DNA of 64,000 bases from a virus (lineage: Duplodnaviria; Caudoviricetes). The number at the start of each line of letters is the position of its first letter. Positions within the stretch are counted from its first letter, which is position 1. Position numbers and translations under genes: made by a program. The DNA lies in the IMG/VR virus record IMGVR_UViG_3300043078_000170. The stretch is one strand, 5' to 3'. Below, one piece after another: positions 31,549 to 56,000 of the stretch. The notes beneath the pieces were generated by a model, which was not told where the DNA came from, did no database searches, and worked only from the letters and a program-made list of their open reading frames with translations.

Positions 31549-34500
31549 ATGGCTGGTTATAAATCTAGTAAAGAATTGTTAGACAAAGGAAAAAACAATT
31601 TAAAAGAAATGTCTGGACAAAATAAAGATTTAAATGAAACTATCGCTAGTTATTCTGAAGAGGAAACAAGATTAAATGCTCCTACAAGTTCTAGAATGCA
31701 AGCAATAGCTGTTAGTGAAAAATTTATAAGTTCATTACAAGAAACTTCATCTTTAATAGAACAAACTAATTCTAGTTTAGTTGGTTTTAAAAGTGCTTTA
31801 GAAGGTGTTGCTTCACAAGCTACAACAGCTACAAATTGTTTATTAGCTTCTAGCTTAGTAAGCTTAACTCAAATTAATAGTGTATTAAGTGCTTTTAGAG
31901 CAGATTTCTTAATAAATAGCTCTGGTGGAAAAGCTGATGGTACAGGTTATTATGATAAAAATCTTTTAACACAATCTTTAAGAGATATTAAAATACAAGA
32001 TAGAGCAGTATTATCAATATTAAAATATGTAAATAAAGCTGCTAATTATGCTAATAAATCTTCAAATACTGTTAGAAGCCAACTTGGTAATAATACTATG
32101 GCTAAAGATGATGATGATGAATCAAATGGTATTATGGATAAACTACTTGGTGGTCTAACTCAAGCAAAAGGTCTTGCAGGATTAGGAGCATTTCTACAAT
32201 TAGCTCCAGGAAAAGGTAAAGTAGGTAAAGCTTTAAATAAAATAGGCGGTAAAGCTGCTAATTTTGCACAAGCTGATACATCTAGTATAGGTGGATTACT
32301 TGAATCATTAATGTCTGATAAACAAAAAGCACAAATACTTGATCCTTTAAAATCTCTTGGTATGGATTTAGGTAATAAAAATGACCCTTTAAGCCAAATG
32401 CTTGGAGATTTTATGAAAAAGAATGGTCTTTCTAAATCTAAAAAAGAAAAAGAAAAAGACCCTAAATTAGTAATGACATCATTAGCTCCTTTTGCAGATG
32501 ATATTAAAGATATGGTTGAAGTAAAAGTAAAAGCTATGCATGCTAGACCAACTTCAATACCTGATTATGCAACTCCTGTATGGGTTGTTAATAGTGAAGA
32601 ACAAACAGACTATGTAAAAAATAAAGATAAAACTAAAGATAAAGAATTAACTAATAAAAGAATTGATGAAATATTCCAAGGTGTTGCCAATAATACTAAA
32701 GATAAATTTGGTAATGATTTATTAACTGCTAACTACGGAGAAAATGGTGTTACATATTCTGGTGTATTAGCTGATAAATATAGTAAAGGTAAAAAAGCTG
32801 TTAATGCTAGAAATGAATTAAATGATAAACAAAAAGCATCACAGAAAAAAGTTTATGACAGAAACCATGAAGAATCTAGCTGGATAGATGAAAATGGTAA
32901 AATACAAAAAGGTGGAGGAGATTTTAAACAAGCAGCTGAAGAATTTAGTAAAAGTAGAGGTGCTGCTGATAACTCTGGTATTTTAGGTGCAGCAGGTAGT
33001 TTACTAAGTGGTGATACTGAAGGAGCTTTGAATGTAGCATTACAAAGTATAATGAGCGGTGATGGTATCTCTGGTGCTTTTGGTTATGGTAAAGGTTTAT
33101 TTAATTTAGGAAAATCTGCTTTTGGTGGCATTAAAGGTTCACATAAAGGTGGTAAAAAGAAAGGAACTGGTAGTAAACCATATTTAGTACAAGTTCATGA
33201 TAATGAAAGAATTCTTGGACCAGATAATGTAGCTGAACAAACTGCAATAAATGATACATCTAAAATACTCGGTATGACAATTGGTATGTTAAACTATGGT
33301 ATTTCATTAACACAAATGAAAAATCAGTTATTTATTAAATATGTCAATAAAGAGAAATTTTCTCCTGAAGAATTACAAACTAATAATGAATTATTAGGTG
33401 CAGATGCTATTGCACAAATAGGTAAAGTATCTGATGCTTCTGAATATTTAAGAACTATTTCAGATTTAAAACAAAAATTATCTGGTAAGAAACAAGATAG
33501 ACAACTTGCAGAAAAACTTGATGATGGAAAACAAGAAAAAAAGAAATCTTTAAAAGATATAGTTAAAGAAAAATTAAAAGATGCTGAAAAAAAATTAAAA
33601 GATAAAGTTCAAGACTTCTTAGGTCTAAAAGAAGAAGAGGAGAAAAAAGATGAAGAAGATAAAGAGAAAAAAGTAGATGAGAAAAAAGATGAAATAGATC
33701 AACAATCTGATGCAGAAGTCTCTGAATATCAAGAAGAAAAAGCACAAGAAGTAGAAGATCAAAAAGAAGAAGTTGAAAAAAATGCACAAGCACAAGTTGC
33801 TGCAAACCAAGAAAAAATAGATCAACAAGTAGAAGATCAAGAAAAAGCACAAGAACAAGAAGGACAAGCACAAGTTGCTGCAAACCAAGAAAGAATAAAT
33901 CAAGATGTTAAGCAAAAAATTGAAGAAGATAATGAAAATGCTGAAGAAAGAAAGAAAATAATTGATAAATATGAAAATAAAATTAATGAAGTTGAGAAAA
34001 AAAGTAAAATGAAAGCTTTAAAAATAAAAATTAAAGGAACTAAAAAAGCATTAAAAGAAAAAATGAAAGGTGTTAAAGAAGCTTTTAATCTTTCAATGTT
34101 AGCTAATATTGATTTAAGTAATCTTAGTATTGATGGCATAAAAGAAATAATAAAAGATAAAATAAATGATATTAAAAGAAGTTTAATAAATAAATTAAAA
34201 GCAAAAGCTAAAATTATTCTTAAAAGTTTAACAAAGAAAAATCTTATAGAAACATTAAAAACTGAAAAGACTAATTTACTTGAACGTATTAAAGGTATGG
34301 CTCATAATGCATCCGATATTATAGAAACTATTGGTACTGGTATGGGTGCAGCAGTAGATGCTTTAGAAGCAGTTCCTATAGCAGGTCCAGCCTTAAAATT
34401 AGCAGCAGGTATTGCAGCAGGCACAGCAGTTGCAGGAATTGGTTTAGCAATTAAAAAAGCTATTGATAAGGGTAAAGAAGCTAATGTAAATGCAGATAAA

Positions 34501-37500
34501 GAAACTAAAAAATTTGAAAAATCAGCGGATAAAGAAAAAAAGAAAGCAGAAAAAGAACAAGAGAAAAAAGATAAAGAAAAAGAAAAAGAAGAAAATTCTA
34601 AAGCTAAAGCTTCAACAACTCAAGAAAAAGAAAAAGATGATAAAGATATAGATAAAACTAAAGATGAATTAGATAAATTTAAAACTGATGATGAAAAAAA
34701 TGGAAAAGCTAAACCTCATAAAAAAGGTGGTTTATTAGGTGCTTTGCTTGGTGGACCAAAAAATGATTTATTACATTATTTAAATAAAAATCAAATAAAA
34801 GCTTTAGAAACAGGTTCTAAAAGCAAATTTGCTAATTTAATGCTAAAAGATCCTAAAAAAGCAGCAAATATTATATTTATGCTTAATGGTGGACCAATGC
34901 TTTTAGGGTTTAAAGATACTAAAACAGAAGATTTAAATAATCTTGAGAGTGTTACAGCTACCAATTCTAATTCAAACTCTAGTTCTAGTAGTAAAAATAC
35001 TATTTGGTCTAAATTAAAAAATAAACTTAGTCAAAAGAAATTACTTTCTGATGATTTAAGTGATGAAGGATATTCTCAGAATATTGAAACTGCTGCTTTA
35101 CAATATGAACAAACTAAAAATAGTGCTAATATAATTTCTGCTTTTGCTAGTGGATTAGGTTTTGCAAAATTAGAAGATGACTCAGGAACTTCACTATTTA
35201 CAACAACTATTAGAAAAACAGCACAGCAAGAAGCTTTAACTAAAAACTTAGGAACAGCAACTGCTGCTTCTACAACTTCAACTGGTACAACTGCTGCTTC
35301 TACAACTTCAACTGATGATGATAGTAGCTCTTCAGACAATCGATTTAATGGTAGTAAATATATTGGCTATGATGAGGATGGTACTTGGAGTAATAGTACT
35401 ACTAATAGTGATATTGATAGTAGTGGTTATTTTTCTAAAAGTAATTCTTCATCGTCAAAAACTTTAGTTACAAAAATATTAAATAATAACTGGCTTAAAT
35501 ATAAAAATGATAATAATATAACTGATACTACAACAACTAATGGTAGTTCTTATCCTAGAAAATTTTTAAATTCTGAATATGATAAAATGTATACTGCATT
35601 TATTAGTGGTGTTCCTTTTAGTGGAACAACTTCTAAAAATTATATGCATTCTAAATTAGCAAGTTCTATTAGTGAATCAGATGCTTGGACTGTTCCAGAT
35701 TCTATTAAAAACTCAGATACAGAAAAAAATGCTGTAAGAGATTATATAAATAAAAAATCTGGAGTTAAATACACTAAATATGGTTTAGGTATTTCTGGGT
35801 TATATGGATTAGGTGATGAAAATGATGAAGACTTCTTAGATGCTTCAGGATATGCTCTTTCTAAAGGTTACAAAGAAAAAGATGGTGGTACTTACCCTCA
35901 ATTCTTTACAGACTATCTTAAAAAAGATAATATCGAAGTAGAAAATGCTGGAAGTGTTAATAAAATAAAAAATAGATTAGCTAGTGGTAGTCCAGTAATT
36001 CTTATGGGTAAAGATGAATCAGAAAATGGTACAACTCCTTATGGAGCAGAACCTCACTATGTAGTAGCTACTGGATATGACGGTAAAAATATTAGAGTAG
36101 TTGACTCTGAAAGTACTAATGATTATGATATTTATAATGCCGATAAGGTATTAAGTCATTCATCAATTAAATTAGGAACTACTAATAGTAAAAAAGGTAA
36201 AGGAAGAAAAGTTAGAAGTAAATCTGGAAGAGCTAGAAAAACTTCAAAAAATAAAAAATATGATAATAAAAGAACAGTTGGTGGTTCTAGAACATATAGT
36301 ACAACTATAATAAAATCTGCTTCTGATTACGGTACTTCAAGTTCTTCAAAAATTTCTAATAATTATTCAAAACAAAATAATTCTTCTAGAAGAGTTAGTA
36401 ATAATAGAAGAAAGAGTTATTTAAAATCAGGGAAAGGAAAATATGGAAGAGGTTATGTTGAACAAATTAATGCAAATCCAGAATTATTAAAAGGTGCTCA
36501 AGATGGTTGGACTATGTATGGTATCTTAGCATCAGTAACATTAGCACAGTCTATTATTGAATCTGGTTTTGGTACTTCTAATTTAGCAAAGAATTATCAT
36601 AACTGGTTTGGACATACTGCTGGATTCGCTAGTGATAAATATATGACTGGTACATATCAAGGATCACATGAATGGGCTGTATATACTTCTGATGGCGACT
36701 GCTTTAGAGACCATGCTTATGTATTATCAGGTCAATCAGGTAACACTAGATACATGGCTGCAGTAGGTGAAGCAGATCCTAGAGCTTCTATTACAGCAAT
36801 TGAAAATGGTGGTTATTGTGAAGGTGATCCAAATTCTTATATTGATAAAGTAATGAATATTATTGATAGTTATAATTTAACTCAATTCGATGTAGGTGAA
36901 TATAATGGTGTTGCAGCAGGCAGTGGAGCAGTAGTTTATTCTAAGACTTGTTGGACTGGTGACTCACGTACAGAACAAATGGCTAATTACTTTAGTGATT
37001 TAGAAGTATACGCTACAAAAGGTGGACAAACTATTGATTACTTTAATCAACATTATTCAGAAATTTCTGATAAAGAAGGTTATAATATTTTCTGTTGGTA
37101 TGGTGTAAATGGTGCAACAGCATCTGGAGCACAAAAGACAGCAGAAGCTTATAATAAATTAGCTACAGATTTAAAAGGTAAATCACAAGTATTCGCTGGT
37201 ACTATTGGTCATTGTCCTAATGGTACAGGAAGTGGTAAAGTAGAAGGCGGTGCAGGTCAATCTATTGAAACACAAAATGAAGGTGTTGTTACATTCAATA
37301 CTGAATTATTACAGAATCTTTCAAGTGATATTATAGTTATTGATACTTATACTTATATTAAAAGTCTTGAAGATAGTATGGGTGCAGAAGCCATGACTAC
37401 AGATAACTTACATTATACTAAAGAATGTAGCCAGAAAATTAGAGAATATGTAAATCAACAAATTCAAGCAGCTTCGGCAACAACTACTACGGCTACTTCA

Positions 37501-38139
37501 GATGCAGGTGTTGCTATTGGTGATTTATATGTAACATTAGAAGGTTATGTTGATGCTAAAGATATTTTATCACAGTATGCTTCTGGAGATGATATATGGG
37601 ATGGTGTTTCATCTTATAATTATGCAGATAGTTCTGATTATACATCTACTGCTGCTGCAAATTATGATCCAACAAGTAGTAGTGAAGATGACGAAACATC
37701 TACCGCAACTCCAACAGCTTCTAGCAGTTCTTCATCTACACCAACATCTAGTAGTACACCTTCTTCTAGTGATAGCACTTCTAGTTCTACTAGTAGTAGT
37801 ACACCTTCTTCTAGCGGTAGTACTTCTGGTTCTACTAATAATCCTACTACAACAACTACTACTACAACTCCAACAGTATCTACGCCAACTGATAGCAATA
37901 CATCTACAGAAATATATCAAAGTAATGGTACATTATATGTAGTAAATAATATTGAATATGGAATTAAAGCTAATATAGCAGATATTCTAAAAGAATTTAA
38001 TGAATTAAATGATATACAAGATGATAGTTTAGATGTATTAAATGTAATATATCAAAAATTATTAAAACGTAATGGAAAAAGTAAAAATACAAAAATTGAT
38101 GGTTATGACTATTCTTTAAAGTATAGAAGATTCGTATAA
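31549..38139 (+). CDS. Giant tail-associated lysin paralogue 1: shared N-terminus, C39-like C-half, GH73 glucosaminidase, SGNH hydrolase
   Basis: GSPVILMG..PHYVVATGYD..VVDS (35812-36180); LAQSIIESGFG..HNWFG..YIDKVMNIIDSYNLTQFD (36450-36900); GDSRT..GVN..DNLHY (36940-37470). Confidence 0.8.
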   Translation: MAGYKSSKELLDKGKNNLKEMSGQNKDLNETIASYSEEETRLNAPTSSRMQAIAVSEKFISSLQETSSLIEQTNSSLVGFKSALEGVASQATTATNCLLASSLVSLTQINSVLSAFRADFLINSSGGKADGTGYYDKNLLTQSLRDIKIQDRAVLSILKYVNKAANYANKSSNTVRSQLGNNTMAKDDDDESNGIMDKLLGGLTQAKGLAGLGAFLQLAPGKGKVGKALNKIGGKAANFAQADTSSIGGLLESLMSDKQKAQILDPLKSLGMDLGNKNDPLSQMLGDFMKKNGLSKSKKEKEKDPKLVMTSLAPFADDIKDMVEVKVKAMHARPTSIPDYATPVWVVNSEEQTDYVKNKDKTKDKELTNKRIDEIFQGVANNTKDKFGNDLLTANYGENGVTYSGVLADKYSKGKKAVNARNELNDKQKASQKKVYDRNHEESSWIDENGKIQKGGGDFKQAAEEFSKSRGAADNSGILGAAGSLLSGDTEGALNVALQSIMSGDGISGAFGYGKGLFNLGKSAFGGIKGSHKGGKKKGTGSKPYLVQVHDNERILGPDNVAEQTAINDTSKILGMTIGMLNYGISLTQMKNQLFIKYVNKEKFSPEELQTNNELLGADAIAQIGKVSDASEYLRTISDLKQKLSGKKQDRQLAEKLDDGKQEKKKSLKDIVKEKLKDAEKKLKDKVQDFLGLKEEEEKKDEEDKEKKVDEKKDEIDQQSDAEVSEYQEEKAQEVEDQKEEVEKNAQAQVAANQEKIDQQVEDQEKAQEQEGQAQVAANQERINQDVKQKIEEDNENAEERKKIIDKYENKINEVEKKSKMKALKIKIKGTKKALKEKMKGVKEAFNLSMLANIDLSNLSIDGIKEIIKDKINDIKRSLINKLKAKAKIILKSLTKKNLIETLKTEKTNLLERIKGMAHNASDIIETIGTGMGAAVDALEAVPIAGPALKLAAGIAAGTAVAGIGLAIKKAIDKGKEANVNADKETKKFEKSADKEKKKAEKEQEKKDKEKEKEENSKAKASTTQEKEKDDKDIDKTKDELDKFKTDDEKNGKAKPHKKGGLLGALLGGPKNDLLHYLNKNQIKALETGSKSKFANLMLKDPKKAANIIFMLNGGPMLLGFKDTKTEDLNNLESVTATNSNSNSSSSSKNTIWSKLKNKLSQKKLLSDDLSDEGYSQNIETAALQYEQTKNSANIISAFASGLGFAKLEDDSGTSLFTTTIRKTAQQEALTKNLGTATAASTTSTGTTAASTTSTDDDSSSSDNRFNGSKYIGYDEDGTWSNSTTNSDIDSSGYFSKSNSSSSKTLVTKILNNNWLKYKNDNNITDTTTTNGSSYPRKFLNSEYDKMYTAFISGVPFSGTTSKNYMHSKLASSISESDAWTVPDSIKNSDTEKNAVRDYINKKSGVKYTKYGLGISGLYGLGDENDEDFLDASGYALSKGYKEKDGGTYPQFFTDYLKKDNIEVENAGSVNKIKNRLASGSPVILMGKDESENGTTPYGAEPHYVVATGYDGKNIRVVDSESTNDYDIYNADKVLSHSSIKLGTTNSKKGKGRKVRSKSGRARKTSKNKKYDNKRTVGGSRTYSTTIIKSASDYGTSSSSKISNNYSKQNNSSRRVSNNRRKSYLKSGKGKYGRGYVEQINANPELLKGAQDGWTMYGILASVTLAQSIIESGFGTSNLAKNYHNWFGHTAGFASDKYMTGTYQGSHEWAVYTSDGDCFRDHAYVLSGQSGNTRYMAAVGEADPRASITAIENGGYCEGDPNSYIDKVMNIIDSYNLTQFDVGEYNGVAAGSGAVVYSKTCWTGDSRTEQMANYFSDLEVYATKGGQTIDYFNQHYSEISDKEGYNIFCWYGVNGATASGAQKTAEAYNKLATDLKGKSQVFAGTIGHCPNGTGSGKVEGGAGQSIETQNEGVVTFNTELLQNLSSDIIVIDTYTYIKSLEDSMGAEAMTTDNLHYTKECSQKIREYVNQQIQAASATTTTATSDAGVAIGDLYVTLEGYVDAKDILSQYASGDDIWDGVSSYNYADSSDYTSTAAANYDPTSSSEDDETSTATPTASSSSSSTPTSSSTPSSSDSTSSSTSSSTPSSSGSTSGSTNNPTTTTTTTTPTVSTPTDSNTSTEIYQSNGTLYVVNNIEYGIKANIADILKEFNELNDIQDDSLDVLNVIYQKLLKRNGKSKNTKIDGYDYSLKYRRFV

Positions 38140-39585
38140 TTATTGAGATAGGAGTGATAAGATATGGCAAATATGAAATCTTCAAAACAGACAGCTAATC
38201 AAGCTACTAACAATCTTGATCCAAATATGAGTAAAATAGCTGAGCAAACAAGTGCTATAGCATCAAGCTTATCTCAACAAAGTAGTTCGATTCAAGCTTT
38301 AAAAGATTCTATATCTAGAAAAGAAGCTAGTGATGAAAAATCTAATAAACAAATTACTTCATCATTACAAAATTCTGATAAATATATACTTTCTATTAAT
38401 ACTAATTTAAAAAATATGAATCAAACAATAAGCTCTATGTCAAGTGTTGTATCTAATATGACAATGAATAGTAGCGCTACAGTATCGTTGTTAGGTTCTA
38501 TTCAAACAAGTTTAGTACAAATTACAAGCGTATTAGCAGCTTTTAGGTCAGATTATTTATTAGTAAATAGTGGTAATAAAGCAGATGGTACAGGTTATTA
38601 TGATATGAACCTCTTAAAAGAAATTGGTAGTTCTTTAAGAGGTGTTAAAAGTGCTGAATTACAAAGACAAATTAATTCAATTATGAAAGCTGCTAATTAT
38701 GCTAATATGGCTTCTAATTCCGTTAGAAGTAAGCTTGGTAATAAAAATATGGCTAAAGATGGTGATGAACCAACAGGTGCTATAGACAAATTATTAGGCG
38801 GTTTAACACAAGCAAAAGGTCTTGCAGGTTTAGGAGCATTTTTACAATTAGCTCCAGGAAAAGGAAAGGTTGGTAAAGCTTTAAATAAAATAGGCGGTAA
38901 AGCTGCTAATTTTGCACAAGCTGATACATCTAGTATAGGTGGATTACTTGAATCATTAATGTCTGATAAACAAAAAGCACAAATTTTAGATCCTTTAAAA
39001 AGTTTAGGAATGGACTTAAAAGGTAAAAATGATCCTTTAAGCCAAATACTTGCTTCTTTTATGGATAAAAATGGATTATCAAAAGATAAAAAAGAAAAAG
39101 AAAAAGACCCTAATCTAGTTTGGTCGGCTTTAGCTCCTTTTGCAGATGATATTAAAGATATGGTTGAAATGTCTTATGAAGGAGTTAAAAAAAGACCTAA
39201 AGCTATTCCTATATATGCTACACCTGTATGGGTGGTTAATAGTAAAGATCAAAATAATTATGTAGATCATTCTAAAGGAACTAATGAAAAAGATTTACTT
39301 AATAAAAGAATAGATGAAATATTCCAAGGTGTTGCTAATAATACTAAAGATAAATTTGGTAATGATTTATTAGTTGATAATGGTGGAACATATTCTGGTG
39401 TATTAGCTGATAGATATAGCAAAGGTAAAAAAGCAATTAATGCTAGAAATGAATTAAATGATAAAAGAAATGCTGCTAGTAAAAAAGTTTATAATAGAAA
39501 CCATGAAGACTCTAGCTGGATAGATGAAAATGGTAAAATACAAAAAGGTGGAGGAGATTTTAAACAAGCAGCTGAAGAATTTAGT
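32224..39585 (+). repeat. Identical DNA blocks shared by the two giant paralogues (113 bp 32224-32336 = 38872-38984; 75 bp 32875-32949 = 39511-39585)
   Basis: Direct base-by-base comparison. Confidence 0.9.
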
Positions 39586-42500
39586 GGAATTGCAGGAAAA
39601 AAATACGGTCCAAACGGTGAAATTTCTGGCGGTTCTGGTATTTTAGGTGCTGCAGGTAGTTTACTAAGTGGTGATACTGAAGGAGCTTTGAATGCTGCTT
39701 TACAAAGTATAATGGAAGGTAACGGAGTCTCTGGCGCTTTTGGTTATGGTAAAGGTTTATTTAAAATGGGAAAAGCTGCTTTTGGTGGTATTAAAGGTTC
39801 ACATAAAGGTGGTAAAAAAGGTAAAGGTGTAGATCCACGTAAAAAAAATGATAAAAACTCTTATGAAAATAGAGATGAAACTACTAATGAGCATGAAGTA
39901 ACACCTATTACTGCAGAAACTACTATTTTAAATGAAAAAGATACTAAAGAAGCTAAAACTAATAGAGATATTTTAACAGGACAAATTACTGTAGCAGGTG
40001 CTATCAATGCTTTAGTAGATATGACTACACAAGAAAATATTTATTTAAGTCAAGCTGTAAATAATGGTAAAGTTGATCCAACTAAAGTTAAAAAATATCC
40101 AAGTTCTTTTGATAGTTTAATAAAATTAGCATCTTCTTTAAAAATAGATAAAGCAGGTTTAAAAGCTATTAGTCAATTTAAAAAAGTTTCTGATTTAACT
40201 AAAGTTATTAAAAAACCTAAAAATAAAACTATGACAACTTCTGAATATTTTTATGGCAAAACTCCTGAAGAATTAGAAGAAGAAAATAATGAAAAAGAAG
40301 GAGAAGAAAAGAAAGAAACTCCACTTGAAAAACTTATGAATAAAATTAATGACAAGAAAAAAGATATTACTGATAAATTAAAGGATAAAGTTACAGGTAA
40401 ATTAAAAGATAAAGTTATGCCTAAAGCTAAAGAATTAGGAAAAAAAGTATTAAATAAAGTTGAGAATAAGTTTGGAATGGCAGCAGGATCTGTAGGTAAA
40501 AAAATTAAATCTATGAAAGATATGAAAAAAAATTTTGAGGATAAAGTAGATAAAAAAGTAGATGCTGCTCTTGATAAAGGTATGGATTTAGCTGCAAAAG
40601 GTGCTAAAAAAGTTGGTGGTGCTTTAGTAGGTCTTGGTAAAAAAATGGCTAATAAAATGAAAAAGAAAAAAGACCCAAATGCCGAACTTGAGAAAATGTA
40701 TGAAGACCAATTAAAAGCTAAACGAGGTGTTGGTGAAAAAGAAATAGAAGCAGCAGAATATGCAGTTGGTGCAGAAAAGGATGCAGCAGAAGATGCAGCA
40801 GCTAAAGAAAAAGAAACGGCACAGGAAATATCGGATGAAGAAAAGAAGGCTGCAGAAGAAAGAGAAAAAACTAGAAAAGAAAATGAAGAAAAGCTTAAAG
40901 AAAAAAGAGAACAAGCTCAAGAACAAGAAATTGCACATGAACAAGCTGCTGCAGATGCTGAACTAGCAGTTAAAACAACAACTGCTGAAACTGAAGGAGC
41001 AGTTCAAGAAGCTGCAGCTACTGGCGAATCTGGTTTTAGTATTACTGGTGCTATTAAAAATGCTATAACAAAAGTTTCTGGTTTGCCATTGCCTGCTAAA
41101 ATAGCATTAGGTGCTGCTGGTGTTGCTGCAGTAGGTGCTTTAGGAGCAAAGTTAATTAAGAAAATTAAAAAAATGGCATCAGGCAAAGGTGGAAAAGGTT
41201 CTGGAGATTCTGGTGGCAGTGAAGCAAAAGCTTCAGTTAGTAAAGATGCTACAAAAGCTGCTAAAAAAGAACAAAAGAAACAAGAAAAAGAACAAAAGAA
41301 ACAAGAAAGAAAAGAAAAAAGAGAAAAAGCTAAAAAGAAAATAAAAAGAGGTGCAAGATCTTTTCTTAATAGATTAACTGGTGGATTAACTGCTGCAAAA
41401 GTTTATGTAGATGAAAATGGTGATGTTTTAAAATCTAAAGGTGACCAACCAATCATGATGTTAGATGATAATGGTGATGAAACAGACCAAACTTTAAATG
41501 TTAAAGATAGTGATGGTAAAAAGCAGTTTCTTAAAAGATTAATGAAAAGAGAATTTAAAATAGATAAAGGTAAAGCTCTTAAACAAACTTTAAATAAAAT
41601 TAAAAATAAAGCTAAAGAAAAAATAGAAGCTGCTAAAGAAAAAATATCTGAAGGTAAAGAAAATGCTAAATCTTCTTTAAAAAAAGGTCTTGGAATTGCA
41701 GGAAAAATAGGTCTTGGATTAATAGGTGGTCCAGGTGCTTTAATTGCAGGCGGTTTAGCTAAAAAAGCTATTGGTGGATTAACTAAAAAGAAAAATGAAA
41801 AAGCCGATAAATTAAATCAATTATTATTAATGTCATCTTCTGCTTATTTATTCATGGATTCTAAACTTCAAGAACAATTAGAAAATATTGAAAATAGTGA
41901 TTTTGGTAAATTAATAAATGAAAATCCACAACAAGCTTCTAGTTTATTATTTAGTACTGCTGCAAGTAGTCTTAATAGTATAATTAGTGGAGTATCAGAT
42001 GTTACAAGTGATTTATCGTCTGTTGTAAGTAGCTTAGTCGATAAGGTTACTGGTGATGATGAAGAAACTAAAGCTAAGTCTGCATATTCTTCAGACTTAT
42101 CGGATGGCTCTTTCAGTGAAAGTGCTACAGTTGCTTATGCACAGATGAATGAACGTAATAATAATAATGAAGTATTAAACTCTTTTGCTAAAAGTATAGT
42201 CGGAACAGCTTCTACAGCTAGTGATAATGGTAATGCAATGACTACTTCTAAATTAGTTAATTCAGAAAGAAAAAATAATGCTGTAAAAATTGGTGTAGTA
42301 GATGGTGTAGCAGGAAGTTCAGCAACAGCTTCTAGCGGTAATGGTGGTGCAGGTGTCTTAGCTGCAACAGCTCAAGTCTGTGTAGCTTATAATAACGCAG
42401 GTATTACTGGTAAAGAAGGTGACTATAATCAAGATGGTTTAACTCTTGATATTAATGTTGGTGGACAAACTATTAATACTAGACCTGACTGTACTGGTTT

Positions 42501-45171
42501 GATTGATGCTGTACTTGAATATATGGGTTATGATTCTGAAAAAATGAATTCTCTTAAATTTAAAGAATGCTCAGGTATTAAAGACTCTTCTGGTAATATT
42601 TCTACAGACTGGACTCTTATTGATAGCCCTGAACTAACTGATATTCAAGCAGGCGATATTTGTATTGTAAATAGTAACGGTAATCACCACGGTGAAATTG
42701 CTGCTGGTCCTATTGATGATAGTGGTACATTATATGGATTTAACTATGGTTGGGAAACAGGTATGAAAAGATCAAATGCTGCTGCAGCAGAAGCTTTAGC
42801 AGGCACTGATTATTTAACTGCTTGTATTAACAATAGTTCTACAATTAATGGGCATAAATATTATGACCGTATTATTAGATATAATGTTGCTACAACTACT
42901 AACTCTAATTCATCTTCTTCTGCTTCTGTATCAGCAGGTATGTCCGCAGATACATTCTTTATTAATGATTTAGGATTAGATTCTTCTAATCCAACATCTA
43001 GAGGATTCTCTGCACATAAAGGTACTGACTATAGAGCAGCTTCTGGTACAGCAGTTCATACGCCAACAGGCGGTACTGTTGTTAAAGCTACTAAGGATCA
43101 AGCATCTATTTCATCATCTATGGGTAGATATGTAATAATTAAAGATAATGATGGTAACTATTGGAGATATATGCATTTTAGTGCTATACCTTCTGTTGCT
43201 ACTGGAGATAGTTTAACACCTGGTCAGCTTATTGGTTATTCAGGTGGAGATACTAGTGACCCTTATAGAGGTGATTCTACTGGAGCACATCTTCACGTAG
43301 ACTTATCATCATCAAGCACAGTTGATGGCAAGAATAATAATATGATGGATGTACAAAAATATACTTTAACTGGTAAAGGTAGATCAAGTAATAATCATAT
43401 TTATCAAAGAGATTATTCTAATTATATTTATAATACCGATAAAGACTCTGAATTACAAACATTAGGTGACTCTGGTTGTGGACCTGCTGCAGCAACTGCT
43501 GTTAAAAGATATTATGTCGGAAGAGGTCTTAAGAAGTATGGTGGAGATAAAGAAGATGATACAACTACAACTGATACAACAACAGCAACTGCTTCTGAAG
43601 ATACAACTGATACAAATACTGCAACAGATAGTACAGCAGATGCATCTACAACACAAAAAACTGCAACTGTTGGTGAATCAGTAACAGTTGTTGATGAGAA
43701 ATTTAATCATACTTATGAATTAACTTTACAACAATGTCATATAGATGTATGGAATGGAATAAAAGCTGCAGGACTTACTGACGAAGCCGCTTGTGGTGTT
43801 TTAGGTAACTTTCTATCAGAATGTGGTAGTGGTGACTGGAATGAAGAAGTTGCTAAAGGTAAAACAGGTTATGGCGGTGGTCTTATGCAATGGACACCTT
43901 ATACTAAGCACCAAAATTGGTGTACTTCAAATGGTTATAGTGGTAAAGATACTACAATGGAAGCAAATATAGCTCATGTCGTTTATGCTTTACAAAATGA
44001 AGGTAACTTCTCAAATCCAGCAAGTGCTGATCCTTCTTTAGCTTCACAAGGTTATAATCCTGTAGGATCTTATGAAGAATTTAAAGCTTTAACTAGTGTA
44101 GAAGATGCTGCAGTTAACTATGAAAGAATTTATGAAGTATCATATAACTGGAATGGTAAAACTAGTGAAAATGCACATGCTCTTGAAGATTGGGAAATGT
44201 ATGATAGACCTAGAGTATATCACGCTATATGTTTCTATAATTTACTCTGTGGTACATATAAAGGTGGTACAACATCAGGTTCTACTTCTGCTGTTTCAGG
44301 AAATCTTGGTTTAACTGGTTATATTAATTTAATTACAGATAGTGCAGTTGATGGTTCTTCATTATCTAGCTATTTATCTGGTTCTAATATCTGGGATACA
44401 TCTTCAAGTTCATCTTCAGATAGTAGTGATGGTAGTACAGATAGTAGTACAACTTCAGCTGATAGTAATTCATCTTCAGGGTCTGGTAGAGGAAAACGAA
44501 GATTTGCTAGAAGTCATAAAAGAAATGGAAAAGGTAAATATGGTTTTGGTATTACAAGTGAAGATTCAGTAGGATTTGCTAATACACACTTCGTTGCAGC
44601 AGGTAGTGATGATGATTCTTCAACAGATAGCACAACTTCTTCAAGTAGTTCTTCTAGTGATAGTTCTTCATCAGCATCTCCTTCAAGTAGTTCTTCTTCA
44701 AGCAGTAGTAGCTCATCATTAAATAATACATCAAGCAGTAGTACAAATTCATCTAATAATAATAGTAGTAGTTCTTCAAGTAGTAGTACTCCTTCTACAA
44801 ATTCATCTAATAGTTCTTCATTAAGTGCAACAATAGATTCTTATATTAAAAATAAAATGACACTAACTGATGTAGATAGTAATGGTAATAAATCTTCAAC
44901 TACTAATATATATACTAGTGATAATAAAACTACTTTAACAACTAATGGTAAAACTACTATAGTAATTTGTAATAATTTTGCTGAAAAATCAACAACTGAT
45001 TTAAGTAATATATTAACTAATTTTAAACGTTTAAATGGAACACAAAACAATGCATTAAAAGTATTAAACGCTATTTCAGATTTAATTAAAGAAGAAAATA
45101 CTAGCGAAGATGGAATAACTAAATTAAGATTAGATAATGATGGATTAGATTATATATTAAAAGGATTATAA
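38164..45171 (+). CDS. Giant tail-associated lysin paralogue 2: shared N-terminus, NlpC/P60-like, M23 peptidase, C39-like N-half, phage tail lysozyme
   Basis: RPDCTG..AGDI..HGEI (42350-42890); HKGTD..YMH..STGAHLH (42950-43370); YQRD..GDSGCGPAA (43393-43510); AACGVLGNFLSEC..GLMQWT (43740-44260). Confidence 0.8.
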   Translation: MANMKSSKQTANQATNNLDPNMSKIAEQTSAIASSLSQQSSSIQALKDSISRKEASDEKSNKQITSSLQNSDKYILSINTNLKNMNQTISSMSSVVSNMTMNSSATVSLLGSIQTSLVQITSVLAAFRSDYLLVNSGNKADGTGYYDMNLLKEIGSSLRGVKSAELQRQINSIMKAANYANMASNSVRSKLGNKNMAKDGDEPTGAIDKLLGGLTQAKGLAGLGAFLQLAPGKGKVGKALNKIGGKAANFAQADTSSIGGLLESLMSDKQKAQILDPLKSLGMDLKGKNDPLSQILASFMDKNGLSKDKKEKEKDPNLVWSALAPFADDIKDMVEMSYEGVKKRPKAIPIYATPVWVVNSKDQNNYVDHSKGTNEKDLLNKRIDEIFQGVANNTKDKFGNDLLVDNGGTYSGVLADRYSKGKKAINARNELNDKRNAASKKVYNRNHEDSSWIDENGKIQKGGGDFKQAAEEFSGIAGKKYGPNGEISGGSGILGAAGSLLSGDTEGALNAALQSIMEGNGVSGAFGYGKGLFKMGKAAFGGIKGSHKGGKKGKGVDPRKKNDKNSYENRDETTNEHEVTPITAETTILNEKDTKEAKTNRDILTGQITVAGAINALVDMTTQENIYLSQAVNNGKVDPTKVKKYPSSFDSLIKLASSLKIDKAGLKAISQFKKVSDLTKVIKKPKNKTMTTSEYFYGKTPEELEEENNEKEGEEKKETPLEKLMNKINDKKKDITDKLKDKVTGKLKDKVMPKAKELGKKVLNKVENKFGMAAGSVGKKIKSMKDMKKNFEDKVDKKVDAALDKGMDLAAKGAKKVGGALVGLGKKMANKMKKKKDPNAELEKMYEDQLKAKRGVGEKEIEAAEYAVGAEKDAAEDAAAKEKETAQEISDEEKKAAEEREKTRKENEEKLKEKREQAQEQEIAHEQAAADAELAVKTTTAETEGAVQEAAATGESGFSITGAIKNAITKVSGLPLPAKIALGAAGVAAVGALGAKLIKKIKKMASGKGGKGSGDSGGSEAKASVSKDATKAAKKEQKKQEKEQKKQERKEKREKAKKKIKRGARSFLNRLTGGLTAAKVYVDENGDVLKSKGDQPIMMLDDNGDETDQTLNVKDSDGKKQFLKRLMKREFKIDKGKALKQTLNKIKNKAKEKIEAAKEKISEGKENAKSSLKKGLGIAGKIGLGLIGGPGALIAGGLAKKAIGGLTKKKNEKADKLNQLLLMSSSAYLFMDSKLQEQLENIENSDFGKLINENPQQASSLLFSTAASSLNSIISGVSDVTSDLSSVVSSLVDKVTGDDEETKAKSAYSSDLSDGSFSESATVAYAQMNERNNNNEVLNSFAKSIVGTASTASDNGNAMTTSKLVNSERKNNAVKIGVVDGVAGSSATASSGNGGAGVLAATAQVCVAYNNAGITGKEGDYNQDGLTLDINVGGQTINTRPDCTGLIDAVLEYMGYDSEKMNSLKFKECSGIKDSSGNISTDWTLIDSPELTDIQAGDICIVNSNGNHHGEIAAGPIDDSGTLYGFNYGWETGMKRSNAAAAEALAGTDYLTACINNSSTINGHKYYDRIIRYNVATTTNSNSSSSASVSAGMSADTFFINDLGLDSSNPTSRGFSAHKGTDYRAASGTAVHTPTGGTVVKATKDQASISSSMGRYVIIKDNDGNYWRYMHFSAIPSVATGDSLTPGQLIGYSGGDTSDPYRGDSTGAHLHVDLSSSSTVDGKNNNMMDVQKYTLTGKGRSSNNHIYQRDYSNYIYNTDKDSELQTLGDSGCGPAAATAVKRYYVGRGLKKYGGDKEDDTTTTDTTTATASEDTTDTNTATDSTADASTTQKTATVGESVTVVDEKFNHTYELTLQQCHIDVWNGIKAAGLTDEAACGVLGNFLSECGSGDWNEEVAKGKTGYGGGLMQWTPYTKHQNWCTSNGYSGKDTTMEANIAHVVYALQNEGNFSNPASADPSLASQGYNPVGSYEEFKALTSVEDAAVNYERIYEVSYNWNGKTSENAHALEDWEMYDRPRVYHAICFYNLLCGTYKGGTTSGSTSAVSGNLGLTGYINLITDSAVDGSSLSSYLSGSNIWDTSSSSSSDSSDGSTDSSTTSADSNSSSGSGRGKRRFARSHKRNGKGKYGFGITSEDSVGFANTHFVAAGSDDDSSTDSTTSSSSSSSDSSSSASPSSSSSSSSSSSSLNNTSSSSTNSSNNNSSSSSSSSTPSTNSSNSSSLSATIDSYIKNKMTLTDVDSNGNKSSTTNIYTSDNKTTLTTNGKTTIVICNNFAEKSTTDLSNILTNFKRLNGTQNNALKVLNAISDLIKEENTSEDGITKLRLDNDGLDYILKGL

Positions 45172-53075: not shown

Positions 53076-56000
53076 TTACTTAATAAAATCAATATTAGTT
53101 GAAATATTTTCTTTTGTTGTTGAGCTTAAATCAATTTCTCTAATACCACCAGCAAATGAAATTTTAACTAAGTTATTTGAAATTACAGTATTTTTTAATA
53201 AGTCATTATAAATATCATGTAAATTATATGTTGTATTATTAAATGTAAATTCTTTATCTTCAACATTTAATGTATCATAATAATCTTCAGCTAAGATAGT
53301 TACTGTATCTGAAAATGAACGATAACCTTTCTTTTCATTTTCTTTCATCCAACCATTAATTCTATAACCTACAATTTTATTGGCAGTACTATCATAAATA
53401 ACGCCAAATAATCTATAAATAAATGAGAATCTATTTAAGCTAGACGTTTTAAGTTTATCATCATTTTCTTTACTAATTATTATATTAGTTGTAGCGTTAG
53501 GGATTGTTCTAAATTGATTTGTATTAGTATATTTTTCATTATAGTCATATACATTTCTAATATTAATATAATAATTACTATTTTTATTAGTTATATCACA
53601 ATCTTTTAAGAATATAGTATTAGTGTCTTTTAATAAATAATTATCTTCGCTATCTGTAAAATCTTTTATAGGATAATTTGCGGAAATATCATATAATGTT
53701 ATACCATTATAATTCTCTGCATTAAATCTACCTCTAGGGTTTTCCATACCTAACATTCCATAAGCAATACAACCAAATCCGTCTAATTGATAGGAAGTAG
53801 CATAATTTAAAACTGAAGGCGTTAAAGGCTTTGAAGTATTATCTTTATTTACTAATTCATTAAAATCACTTTCATTTAAACTTAAAGTACCACAAACATC
53901 ATCTGGATCATCTGGATTCTTTTCAAATTTTCTACCTTCATAGAAATGACAGAAATTTTTATAATTGCTTTTATACTTTGAGTTTGCTAAATCTTCAAGT
54001 GTAGTATCTAATAATATTCTACTAGCTCCATTATATCCATATCGATACATATATGAAATATTATCTTTAAATATTGGATTATTAATTGAATTATCTACTA
54101 CATCTGAAATTAATTCTTGAATAGTTTCATTAAATAAAGCAATTTTCTTACCAGATCTCTCATAATTAGACACATAATAACCTGTGTAATCATCATTATC
54201 AAAATCTAAATTAAAATATTGATAACCATCAATAAAATTTCTAGAAGGAATTTCGTAATCAATATTATCTATATTTATATTTCTCATTTTACTTTTTACA
54301 GTAGCTTTAAATAGATATAAATTTTTATTTGCATATTCTGATTCATTATCACTAAATTTATTCTGATTAAATTTAATAATATTTAAATCTTTAATATAAT
54401 TTTTAAATATTTCTTTTTTAATATCATCATCATCTGTATAATATCTATCAGGAAATGCATCTAAGCTTTCAGTTTTAGTTCTATGATATTCATTCGTAGA
54501 AAATTTTGGTACATTTTCAGTACTACTTGGCAAATATTTTTCAACTTTTAAAGGATCTATATACCAATATTCATTAGATCTTTTTCTTTCATCGCTATAA
54601 GTGCTACCAGCTATTTTATTTTCATGTATAGTAGCTAATACGCTATCAATATTATTATAAGTATTTTTAGCTCTTAAATAAAGAGAATTTAAAGGATCAC
54701 CATCATAAGTAAAATTATTATCTGGATTAAAATCTTTTAAACTATAAATAGTAAATGTATAATTATTATCTTTTTCATAAGTGTTGTCATTCTTTTTATA
54801 TGTTTCTAAAGAATCAAAATAAAGTTCAGAATCATTCATTGTTAGAGTAAAATAGTTATTACCAGTAAAGTTATCATCTTTTTCATGTAAATATGGTAAA
54901 TCACCAACTTTACTATATGGACTTTCTATACGTTTATTTGAAACAGTTGAGATATTTTTATATTTTTGTTTATTACCTCTTGCATTCCAGTTAATTTTCT
55001 TTCTAACTTCTTTAAATTCATCGTTTGTTCCATGATATATTATATTAAATGCATCATTATAAATAATATCATTAATTTCAACTGCAATAAGACTGTTCCA
55101 ATTTACATATGGTTTATTTACATCATAGAATTTTTCAATATATTTTACATTATTATCTTCAATTGAAAAATCACTATCATCTTTTATTAATTCACCTAAA
55201 TCAATAATACTATCTTCTGTATAGTCACTATCTATTGAGTATAAATGATTATTATTAATTCTTAATTTACCACAATTTATAAAGTTATTATCTGAAATAA
55301 TATATAATTTATTACCAAACTCAACATTTATTAAAGATATACAATTTTCACAAACTTTAGAAACATTAGAAGCAGTTGTTACCATTACTTTTTCAGCATT
55401 ATAACCAGAGTTAACATATTCTAAATAATAATCTTTAAATTTAGTTACCAATAATGTACTATCTTCTCCATTGTTATATATTTCAGGTTTTTCTTCTATA
55501 ACACTTTCAATGTAATCTATATATTCATTATAGTCTGTATAACCATCTCTTTCATAGTATATATATTTAGGATCAATATAATAATCTTCACCATCTACTT
55601 CATCTTTATTTTCTTCATAAATATCAACCATTTTACCATGAAAATTTTTATCATCATGATTATAATATAACCAACCAGTTTTACAGTTAACATAAATTGC
55701 ATGGTTTCCTATATAAGTACCATTAAAGCAGCTAGTCATAATTTCATAAGCTTTTCCATCAATATTAACACGATAACCACTTTCAATATCAGAATCTTTA
55801 TAATAATAAGCAAGATATTTTTTATTATTATAATTTATTATAAAAGATTTAACTCTAGGATCAACATCCATAGAACTTTGAACGTTTTCTACAAAAAAGT
55901 TACCAAAATATATAACTTCTGGTAATAATAAATTCATTAATCTACTACAACCGGAAAAACAGCTATAACCTATTGCATAAGCATTGCCAGTATCTATAGT

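Follow-up and report, generated by a model that had tools for sequence, protein, structure and literature searches.

Can a single cysteine peptidase domain be divided between two neighbouring genes in such a way that the enzyme forms only where their products meet? The question is raised by a window of 64,000 nucleotides (IMG/VR record IMGVR_UViG_3300043078_000170; the window denotes the whole stretch of DNA analysed), in which a first-pass annotation had noted two giant paralogous tail proteins, each carrying one half of a C39-like domain. The source phage is an uncultivated jumbo phage. The two giant ORFs, P0001 (p1) and P0002 (p2), are indeed real paralogues, their first ~540 residues being 68% identical by BLASTP, and their N-terminal modules furthermore share 80-91% nucleotide identity in blocks and undergo concerted evolution inside each genome, as would be expected if both dock in one assembly. 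The features of the locus are as follows.

31549..38139, + strand: P0001 (p1), 2196 aa, the upstream paralogue, with the C-half and a glucosaminidase module
31717..33123, + strand: N-terminal module of P0001, paralogous to that of P0002 (BLASTP, 68% identity)
35773..35814, + strand: linker TKYGLGISGLYGLG of P0001, with aromatic-Gly-x-Gly motifs, immediately 5' of the C-half
35830..36174, + strand: C-half of the C39-like domain, P0001 residues 1428-1542 (Pfam PF13529, C-half HMM, six-frame scan)
36436..36453, + strand: linker motif GKYGRG of P0001, before the glucosaminidase module
36496..36879, + strand: glucosaminidase module, P0001 residues 1650-1777
38164..45171, + strand: P0002 (p2), 2335 aa, the downstream paralogue, with the order M23, N-half, Phage_lysozyme2
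38347..39783, + strand: N-terminal module of P0002, paralogous to that of P0001 (BLASTP, 68% identity)
43012..43308, + strand: Peptidase_M23 module, P0002 residues 1617-1715
43396..43527, + strand: N-half of the C39-like domain, P0002 residues 1745-1788 (N-half HMM, alignment A1, six-frame scan)
43516..43545, + strand: linker VGRGLKKYGG of P0002, immediately 3' of the N-half
43744..44151, + strand: Phage_lysozyme2 module, P0002 residues 1861-1996
44533..44550, + strand: linker motif GKYGFG, behind the lysozyme region of P0002
45225..46718, + strand: conserved jumbo-phage virion structural protein, phrog_20401 (context gene)

Two complementary half-domains

The piece in P0002 corresponds to the Cys-bearing first ~45 residues of a papain-fold domain of the Peptidase_C39_2 type and the piece in P0001 to its His/Asp-bearing last ~115 residues. 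Peptidase_C39_2 (PF13529) matches the P0001 segment over profile positions 56-142 of 143 with 35.8 bits (E 1.4e-8), the curated Pfam cut-off being 24 bits, but it is the excised C-half alone that scores, and a Pfam search with the whole giants gives no C39 match. The N-half of the window is left unmatched by PF13529 and that of the relative G003 reaches 11.2 bits, while profile A3 recognises the N-half at 2.2e-8 in G001, a near-identical IMG/VR record used to represent the window's assembly. With half-profiles built exclusively from 126 whole phage domains, P0002 is the only one of the giants to match the N-half (residues 1745-1788, i-E 5e-10 at Z=1e6) and P0001 the only one to match the C-half (residues 1428-1542, i-E 2.4e-34). 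A six-frame scan of the whole window furthermore places model positions 5-49 at nt 43396-43527 and model positions 48-166 at nt 35824-36174, so that the two pieces tile the whole domain almost exactly and leave no gap, and the same scan reveals no second copy of the domain or of either half.

Neither protein thus contains its own missing half, and the reading of P0002 as carrying the N-half only and P0001 the C-half only is confirmed by both approaches. The peptides and positions first reported are likewise correct to the base, with the catalytic Cys1772 of P0002 at nt 43477-43479 and His1503 and Asp1519 of P0001 at nt 36055-36057 and 36103-36105, respectively; Gln1748 and Gln1765 of P0002 start at 43405 and 43456. 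The catalytic residues that define PF13529 on one chain are accordingly distributed, the Cys residing on P0002 and the His and Asp on P0001. No PF03412 or ABC-transporter match is found in P0001 or P0002, no PHROGs family matched either half or the two unassigned modules of the giants, and tblastn with either half against 50,697 isolated-phage records gave no useful match. At the two break points there is no DNA repeat, the only repeated elements being the N-terminal modules and low-complexity Lys/Glu tracts.

Each giant appears to consist of successive cell-wall hydrolase modules that are connected by basic linkers of the aromatic-Gly-x-Gly type. At the position of TKYGLGISGLYGLG all p1 orthologues examined carry a basic linker rich in Gly, in most cases with aromatic-Gly-x-Gly, and p2 orthologues have an equivalent ...[FY]G[RK][AG] at the position of VGRGLKKYGG. 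These giants gain and lose modules freely, and the relative G002 is without three modules that the window has.

Whole domains and the origin of the split

In other phages the domain is common in its whole form, with ~1300 protein clusters at E<=1e-3, almost all at full coverage and nearly all consisting of single phage giants of 3000-6000 aa, of which eight examples were read directly. The whole domains of relatives match PF13529 with 41-43 bits over positions 12-142, and a model of one of them (L004, pLDDT 83.5) has a papain-like C39 fold, with the PEP domain of ComA, PCAT1, 3erv and PeiR as top Foldseek matches. The window's N-terminal module was not found in five genomes with the whole domain.

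When this N-terminal module alone was used as query, without the domain, 17 proteins were retrieved and exactly one half was found in 16 of them, all eight of the p2 type being N-only and all eight of the p1 type C-only. The 17th protein, from the outgroup L047, is the product of one giant gene that has the same N-terminal module and a whole domain, the latter interrupted by a 379-nt group I intron at L047:6257-6635, and this outgroup provides the polarity of the split. The split, with gene order unchanged, recurs in 9 independent assemblies that stem from different samples (the window/G001, G002, G003, L039-L043 and L048), and the C-halves of these form one clade with a support of 98 in a tree from a quick search, in agreement with a split that arose once and was then kept. 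In the complete 306-kb relative G002 the two halves are present and there is no whole copy elsewhere, and the halves strictly co-occur both here and among the proteins retrieved by the N-terminal module. The notion that the domain was partitioned after duplication hence fits the one-gene, whole-domain outgroup, and the overall first-pass interpretation, which included a peptidase assembled from both proteins, is to this extent supported in part. Each of the three conditions that it named for its own refutation (a missing half within either protein, halves that do not co-fold, decay in relatives) was examined, and none spoke against it.

The case for reconstitution in trans

On balance we are inclined to believe that P0001 and P0002 together form an obligate two-protein peptidase reconstituted in trans. 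Since every split-lineage relative examined has conserved the two halves, the enzyme, as judged from these sequences, probably forms only where the proteins meet. An ancestral giant gene would have carried a papain-fold cysteine peptidase module of the Peptidase_C39_2 type, and following duplication of this gene one half of the module would have been deleted from each copy. P0002 would have retained a ~45-residue piece with a β-hairpin and the catalytic helix bearing the Gln and Cys1772, and P0001 a ~115-residue piece with the remaining helices and the sheet bearing His1503 and Asp1519. The break would fall in the surface loop that directly follows the catalytic helix, and a standard flexible linker adjoins each broken end. 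The Cys piece may then dock non-covalently into a groove of the His/Asp piece, such that a single active site would arise only where P0001 and P0002 adjoin, as an obligate heteromer of two putative virion proteins, and the peptidase might in that case act as an assembly checkpoint, as the first-pass annotation proposed. Candidate substrates would be peptide bonds of peptidoglycan, the assumed target of C39-like lysin domains, or else the giants' own aromatic-Gly-x-Gly linkers.

A complex model is in agreement with such an arrangement. The C-half (alignment A2) and N-half (alignment A1) obtained a score of 0.92, against 0.01 for the best of 3 controls, a mark attained by 58 of 80 solved complexes and by 2 of 110 mismatched pairs, which is a rough calibration as the alignments used for the present pair were our own. 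The runs showed at least 99% contact agreement with a partner pLDDT of at least 87, and the strand His76-79 contacts Cys31-35 in the model. The halves thus co-fold in silico, but since they belong to one known fold the pass is to be expected and may reflect likeness to solved C39 structures, and 4 of the 7 rows of the alignment used stem from whole domains; the model therefore speaks for the compatibility of the halves and not for binding.

Further indications come from conservation. In split and whole forms alike, Gln, Cys, His and Asp do not vary, corresponding to the invariant columns Q24, C31, H76 and D92 of alignments A1 and A2, and all four are conserved in 8/8 aligned split genomes. The N-half sequence QTLGDSGC(G/A)PAAA is furthermore unchanged over ~11 lineages, save for two positions that vary in one lineage each, while the segments around it change over the same lineages. 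It should also be mentioned that the His and Asp sit in core strands, and that structural reasons could explain their conservation. Neither half leans on a fixed neighbour, given that in several p1 orthologues the C-half is preceded by a low-complexity linker and that the N-half of L039 has no M23 neighbour. Two further candidates were considered and rejected. A surrogate in cis for the catalytic helix upstream of the C-half does not hold, several orthologues carrying a low-complexity linker and nothing else at this place, and neither does the view of the N-half as an appendage of M23, as L039/P0006 keeps the N-half without M23 and linkers separate the two.

A more specific version of the proposal, which seems doubtful to us, is that the reconstituted C39-like enzyme is a maturation protease of both giants, cutting their own aromatic-Gly-x-Gly linkers. 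The linkers cut would be those found next to nearly every module and also at the two broken ends of the split domain. As the Cys resides on one protein and the His/Asp on the other, P0001 and P0002 would have to co-assemble before processing could begin, amounting to a two-key switch that would release a set of free hydrolases from two tail polyproteins.

Among the alternatives, the one that deserves most consideration, unlikely as we find it, is that both halves are functional and no peptidase is rebuilt, the C-half being an autonomous non-catalytic unit, for instance for binding or structure in the manner of the Cys-less C39-like domains that RTX exporters carry, and the N-half a conserved mini-module with a regulatory, docking or linker-associated role. 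Indeed the structures that resemble the modelled whole phage domain include 3zua, a solved C39-like domain that has no Cys, and a Ser in place of the Cys in the whole copy of P0059 suggests that non-Cys variants are tolerated. Furthermore, C-half-only modules are found in two other lineages of giant proteins (P0016/P0021 and P0024/P0034), where they are well conserved, score very well against the profile (i-E 1e-35 to 1e-49) and occur in proteins that also have a whole copy and no separate N-only piece. A common origin of these modules with the C-half of the window is ruled out by the tree, and such modules have consequently arisen independently at least twice elsewhere, which suggests that a C-half may work without a dedicated Cys piece. 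The existence of a conserved 45-residue piece with QTLGDSGC(G/A)PAAA is however hard to explain without a role in an active site, and the invariance of His and Asp in every C-half, as well as the strict co-occurrence of the halves, are likewise in poor agreement with this alternative. In addition, a C-half without the catalytic helix lacks the core helix of the papain fold, as judged from the secondary structure of the modelled domain.

It is very improbable that the pieces are non-functional leftovers of two in-frame deletions that slowly decay. The free gain and loss of modules, including the three absent from G002, and the fact that the N-half is missed by Pfam could be taken in favour of this notion, but G002 has kept both halves while losing other modules, and the fragments are conserved even though the C-halves of the split clade have diverged down to 53-55% identity. 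Both halves are among the best-conserved segments of the two proteins, with identities of 0.55-0.80, whereas linkers reach ~0.1 and the M23 and lysozyme modules, which the halves thus outdo, 0.35-0.47. They are furthermore under purifying selection: in the closest pair (G003-L040) the N-half has a dN/dS of 0.08 and the C-half one of 0.21, and values calculated segment by segment are 0.13 for the N-half, close to the 0.06-0.22 of enzyme modules, and 0.34-0.55 for linkers; values for distant pairs (up to 0.99) are uninformative, since at ~25% GC these genomes probably have a dS that is saturated or limited by composition. A half is kept in 16/16 split-type proteins with no catalytic residue lost, and as the relatives retain both fragments complete with all catalytic residues, a decay reading is strongly disfavoured.

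That the split is only apparent, a contiguous domain being restored by correction of an assembly error, by an intron, by recoding or by trans-splicing, is brought to mind by the 379-nt group I intron within this very domain in L047 but is extremely improbable, since the N-half is encoded 7.3 kb downstream of the C-half, so that simple splicing would meet the pieces in the wrong order, since both halves are in frame in the middle of long ORFs with further conserved modules following, and since the identical arrangement recurs in all 9 independent assemblies.

Naturally split enzymes with catalytic residues on different gene products are rare, and we know of no papain-fold peptidase in which one structural protein supplies the nucleophile, on a fragment of ~45 residues, and another the His/Asp. 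If the halves do reconstitute, they would represent a natural protein-fragment complementation that makes enzyme activity depend on two virion proteins assembling together, as well as a clean case of subfunctionalisation at the sub-domain level following gene duplication, and split-protease tools could be built on them as a compact natural scaffold. The target of the C39-like module that is very common in the giant tail proteins of jumbo phages, be it the cell wall or the giants' own Gly-rich linkers, would then furthermore become testable.

Tail location and comparison with known systems

By their position, P0001 and P0002 are tandem giant tail proteins resembling tape measure proteins or tail lysins, with a putative location in the virion. 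They are found upstream of a phrog_20401 homologue, which in AR9 and Staphylococcus phage PB50 lies just 3' of tape measure or tail lysin genes; g204 of AR9 and the 'tape measure protein' and 'tail lysin' of vB_StaM_PB50 occupy the same position directly 5' of phrog_20401, and PB50 has two tandem giant genes like the window. The designation as tail proteins thus derives from a gene order shared with annotated genes for tape measure proteins and tail lysins and not from homology, since the AR9 and PB50 genes have no detected sequence similarity to the N-terminal module of the window, the N-terminal 584 aa have no PHROG or Pfam match to tape measure proteins, and the N-terminal module has no tblastn match in 50,697 phage records. 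In addition, neither C39 halves nor the linker motif are present in the tape measure and tail lysin proteins of AR9 and PB50, which makes these proteins unusable as experimental stand-ins.

The closest relatives of the halves are the whole-domain giants, e.g. the 4093-aa protein of IMGVR_UViG_3300014203_000012 (L004) and the cluster representative P0112, which are 41-54% identical to the C-half and up to 78% identical to the N-half over 36-39 aa. They have the catalytic residues and flanking aromatic-Gly-x-Gly linkers as in the window, and P0112 has the order C39 then Phage_lysozyme2 as does P0002. The domain is however contiguous on one polypeptide in these giants whereas it is divided between two genes in the window, and it is the enzyme modules alone, not the N-terminal module, that they have in common with P0001 and P0002.

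Among solved structures the C39 domains of bacteriocin ABC exporters, ComA PEP (3k8u/5xe8) and PCAT1 (4ry2/6v9z), resemble the modelled whole phage domain with TM 0.57-0.61, rmsd 2.4-3.2 Å and a Foldseek probability of 1.00, and both groups have the papain-like arrangement of Cys, His and Asp. The exporter domains are double-glycine leader peptidases with specificity for Gly-Gly cleavage, a specificity reminiscent of the G-x-G linkers of the window. In contrast to the exporters, the window has no ABC transporter, its domain is split and belongs to PF13529 rather than to their PF03412, and at the sequence level it resembles ComA only marginally (E about 0.8).

The Peptidase_C39_2 domains of phage lysins belong to the same Pfam family as the halves of the window, and our search of the literature for C39 domains in jumbo-phage virions or tape measure proteins returned surveys of lysin domains only. 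Peptidase_C39_2 is also one of several cell-wall hydrolase modules in the lysins of phages infecting Gram-positive bacteria (PMC3314691; PMC8223927), and domain N5 of mycobacteriophage LysA has been matched to the C39-like peptidase 3ERV of B. anthracis (PMC3314691). The same 3erv resembles the whole phage domain both in structure and in sequence. Lysins of the LysA type are however soluble endolysins with their modules on one chain, whereas the domain of the window is split between giant, putative virion proteins.

With regard to activation by a partner, the hepatitis C virus (HCV) NS2 protease has composite Cys/His-Glu active sites across a homodimer, and the adenovirus protease gains its activity from pVIc, a peptide derived from another virion protein. 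By analogy with both, the proposed split peptidase would require that two viral polypeptides meet and would have its activity tied to assembly. NS2 is however a homodimer of whole domains and the pVIc cofactor contributes no catalytic residue, whereas in the window the nucleophile would be provided by a ~45-residue fragment encoded by a separate gene from the fragment with the His and Asp.

Parts of one C39-like domain in two giant genes

The window is very AT-rich throughout (GC 0.21-0.35) and carries two adjacent giant paralogues, P0001 upstream and P0002 downstream, which are 68% identical over their first ~540 residues and, judged by eye, resemble each other in the final ~80 residues as well. 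P0001 contains a Glucosaminidase module and P0002 a Peptidase_M23 and a Phage_lysozyme2 module (Pfam). The first-pass annotation described both as giant tail proteins, a label supported by genomic position but not by sequence homology, none of which was detected. The gene 3' of P0002 encodes a virion structural protein of the phrog_20401 family, homologues of which are present in jumbo phages of the phiKZ/AR9 type that infect Listeria, Staphylococcus and Bacillus; in Bacillus phage AR9 a tail tape measure protein is annotated directly upstream of this homologue, and in Staphylococcus phage PB50 the upstream position is taken by two genes in tandem, annotated 'tape measure protein' and 'tail lysin'.

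Features of the two genes in the window
31549-38139, plus strand: P0001 gene, 2196 aa
38164-45171, plus strand: P0002 gene, 2335 aa
35824-36174, plus strand: C-half match, model positions 48-166, six-frame scan
43402-43530, plus strand: N-half match, model positions 5-49, six-frame scan
31717-33123 and 38347-39783, plus strand: paralogous N-terminal modules, with blocks of 80-91% nucleotide identity

Two further conserved modules are found in these proteins. One, with Cys/His motifs, lies in P0002 (aa 1399-1573, window 42358-42882) and recurs in P0143 as two copies, at 47% identity; the other, in P0001 (aa ~1785-1965, window 36901-37443), shows 72-90% identity between the window and the related genome G003. 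Neither has a Pfam or PHROG family, and both are missing from the related genome G002.

A Peptidase_C39_2-type domain had been reported as divided, with the Gln/Cys part (N-half) in P0002 and the His/Asp part (C-half) in P0001, and all peptides and coordinates are confirmed, placing Cys1772 of P0002 at nt 43477 and His1503 and Asp1519 of P0001 at 36055 and 36103. Recognition of each half by Pfam succeeded for the C-half only: the excised P0001 segment exceeds the Peptidase_C39_2 cut-off, at just profile positions 56-142 of 143, whereas the short P0002 piece gives no Pfam match to this family. Separate half-profiles were made from the first 46 and last 120 residues of 126 whole phage domains, a training set free of split-clade sequences. 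The N-profile matches only P0002 (residues 1745-1788, i-E 5e-10 for a nominal million sequences) and the C-profile only P0001 (residues 1428-1542, i-E 2.4e-34), with zero matches in the remaining window ORFs, and a whole-domain profile finds exactly two matches in six frames of all 64 kb. It follows from these matches that the two pieces tile one domain with no gap and essentially no overlap, and by the same scans neither protein holds its own missing half.

Structural fit and proposed reconstitution in trans

The modelled whole domain of the jumbo-phage contig L004 (pLDDT 83.5) has a papain-like layout in which the catalytic helix spans residues 32-42 and the following helix starts at 49, so that the break falls in the inter-helix loop. 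Its best solved neighbours are the C39 peptidase domains of ComA and PCAT1, the pseudomurein endoisopeptidase PeiR, 3ERV from B. anthracis and the papain-like CdiA toxins; matches to solved structures at the sequence level are marginal. Complex prediction with the C-half and N-half of the window scored 0.92 against 0.01 for the best of three controls. Among solved complexes 58 of 80 attain that mark, as do 2 of 110 mismatched pairs, figures that are approximate here because alignments made for this analysis were used. Between runs at least 99% of contacts are shared, the partner pLDDT is 87 or higher, and the His strand (chain 1, 76-79) contacts the Cys helix (chain 2, 31-35). The proposed co-folding is hence reproduced in the model, but what the model shows is compatibility of the halves rather than binding, since solved relatives exist for the fold that they make up and whole domains contributed part of the alignment rows.

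Among the window, G002, G003 and the related contigs L039, L041 and L043, the within-genome identity of the paralogous N-terminal modules (0.49-0.72) exceeds most between-genome orthologue comparisons, being 0.72 in L043 and 0.58 in L041 versus ~0.39 to the others. This pattern indicates concerted evolution by gene conversion, from which we infer a pressure on the two proteins to suit a common partner or assembly, as indirect support for co-assembly.

In four giant proteins of other lineages an extra C-half-only module is found beside a whole copy, each immediately preceded by a G-x-G linker.

C-half-only modules (residues)
P0016: 3283-3400
P0021: 3161-3279
P0024: 2871-2985
P0034: 3396-3509

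These four occupy two tree positions, both outside the split clade, and C-half-only modules thus have at least three origins, in two of which no separate N-only piece is present; the Cys helix could be supplied to these modules by another copy, the alternative being that the C-half is useful by itself. Mainly because of these modules, we lean only modestly towards a peptidase that would be reconstituted in trans from the P0001 and P0002 halves, and regard independent roles of the halves, for which the two origins lacking an N-only piece speak, as rather unlikely.

Maintenance, distribution and history of the split

The Gln, Cys, His and Asp positions show no variation when split forms are aligned with whole ones. 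In three-way orthologue alignments (40-residue windows) the N-half (identity 0.55-0.68) and C-half (0.57-0.80) are among the best-conserved windows, the M23 and lysozyme modules reaching 0.35-0.47 and the linkers about 0.1. For the closest genome pair dN/dS is 0.08 in the N-half and 0.21 in the C-half, and sliding dN/dS is 0.13 in the N-half window, 0.06-0.22 in enzyme modules and 0.34-0.55 in linkers; the higher values of more distant pairs are unreliable, owing to saturation and compositional constraint at synonymous sites. Furthermore, the complete genome G002 (306 kb, CheckV 100%) retains both halves despite the loss of three modules (the Cys/His-containing one, the glucosaminidase and another), and has no whole copy to make the halves redundant. 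Decay of the fragments with loss of catalytic residues, which the first-pass annotation had named as an outcome that would refute its reading, is poorly supported in view of this conservation and seems very improbable. Nor does either half need a fixed neighbour: only Thr/Ser-rich low-complexity sequence precedes the C-half in several P0001 orthologues, and the P0002 orthologue of L039 lacks M23 and retains the N-half with linkers on both sides.

In the protein P0059 a whole C39-like copy (residues ~2805-2945) carries Ser at the position of the catalytic Cys (AEAGSGPAVA) and adjoins a second copy with Cys.

As to whether relatives carry the domain intact or split, whole copies are widespread and the split is found in nine assemblies of one clade. 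The whole copy from the 4093-aa protein of L004, searched against 1.84 billion cluster representatives, gave 1300 clusters at E<=1e-3, and nearly all of the best 150 have full-domain coverage and the domain about three quarters along single proteins of 3000-6000 aa; eight whole-domain examples were inspected directly. The independent split assemblies (the window with its near-identical record G001, G002, G003, L039, L040, L041, L042, L043 and L048) all have the C-half gene upstream and the N-half gene downstream. As a control for bias, relatives were retrieved by the N-terminal module alone (17 proteins), and only the N-half was found in P0002-type C-termini (8/8) and only the C-half in P0001-type C-termini (8/8), the 17th protein being P0180, the single giant gene product of a more distant phage (L047). 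An artefact or hidden joining of the halves is likewise poorly supported and can practically be discounted. The ten C-halves of the split form group as one clade (support 98) when 194 C-halves are placed in a tree, and the closest whole N-half, in the giant protein P0112, is directly followed by Phage_lysozyme2 as in P0002. Judged from these sequences, the whole domain is the common form and the split a derived state of one lineage.

In L042 (13089-14369) the P0001 orthologue stops shortly past the C-half and the glucosaminidase module is a separate 360-aa ORF ~200 nt beyond, reflecting either another fission of the gene or an effect of sequencing or of an intron.

The C39-like domain of P0180 is whole but broken by a 379-nt group I intron (L047:6257-6635; Rfam RF00028, 47.6 bits, E 8e-11; ENA ERZ22666178 contig), and the exon junction, joining ...EADGG to TNPNFF..., would be in frame and matches the family consensus; the three genes called there (1644, 245 and 344 aa) probably belong as exons to a single giant gene. 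Since this outgroup has it, a single gene with the whole domain between M23 and lysozyme is indicated as the ancestral state. Partition after duplication, as originally suggested, stands as the simplest history, with L047 as evidence of polarity: the giant gene would have duplicated, one copy losing the C-half and the other the N-half, both in frame and leaving the adjoining linker in place.

Linkers, putative substrates and known C39 modules

Basic aromatic-Gly-x-Gly motifs (e.g. GKGKYGRG) mark module borders in the giants of the window and of the contigs L004, L005 and L006, and both ends at which the split domain breaks off coincide exactly with such a motif.

Linker motifs in the window
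35773-35814, 36436-36453, 43516-43545 and 44533-44550, plus strand: aromatic-Gly-x-Gly

A motif lies within 45 residues upstream in 72% and downstream in 71% of 180 whole domains, as against 11% of random windows of the same proteins, and none is found in 14,573 residues of other window ORFs or in the C39-less AR9 and PB50 giants. A minus-strand ORF of 3478 aa (53076-63512) is without the motifs, and a similar gene of 3284 aa occupies the corresponding place in relatives. In the P0002 orthologue of G003 (contig L021) a ~36-residue linker segment just 5' of the N-half, TLTGKGKYNIPDEPKSKVKKFGGENQIIEDEPSTAT, is perfectly duplicated in tandem, giving two copies.

C39 peptidases cleave after Gly-Gly, which makes self-processing of a polyprotein, by cutting of the giants' own linkers, an attractive possibility, with the motifs as candidate processing sites. 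The putative substrate may also be the cell wall: the modules neighbouring the halves are cell-wall hydrolases throughout, Peptidase_C39_2 is one of the catalytic domains listed for lysins of phages that infect Gram-positive bacteria (PMC8223927), and mycobacteriophage LysA has a C39-like domain, N5 (PMC3314691).

A literature search found no description of this two-gene C39 partition. The Peptidase_C39_2 family and its occurrence among the modules of phage cell-wall enzymes are already known; the new element is that the domain is stably divided between two genes and that its nucleophile lies on a fragment of ~45 residues.
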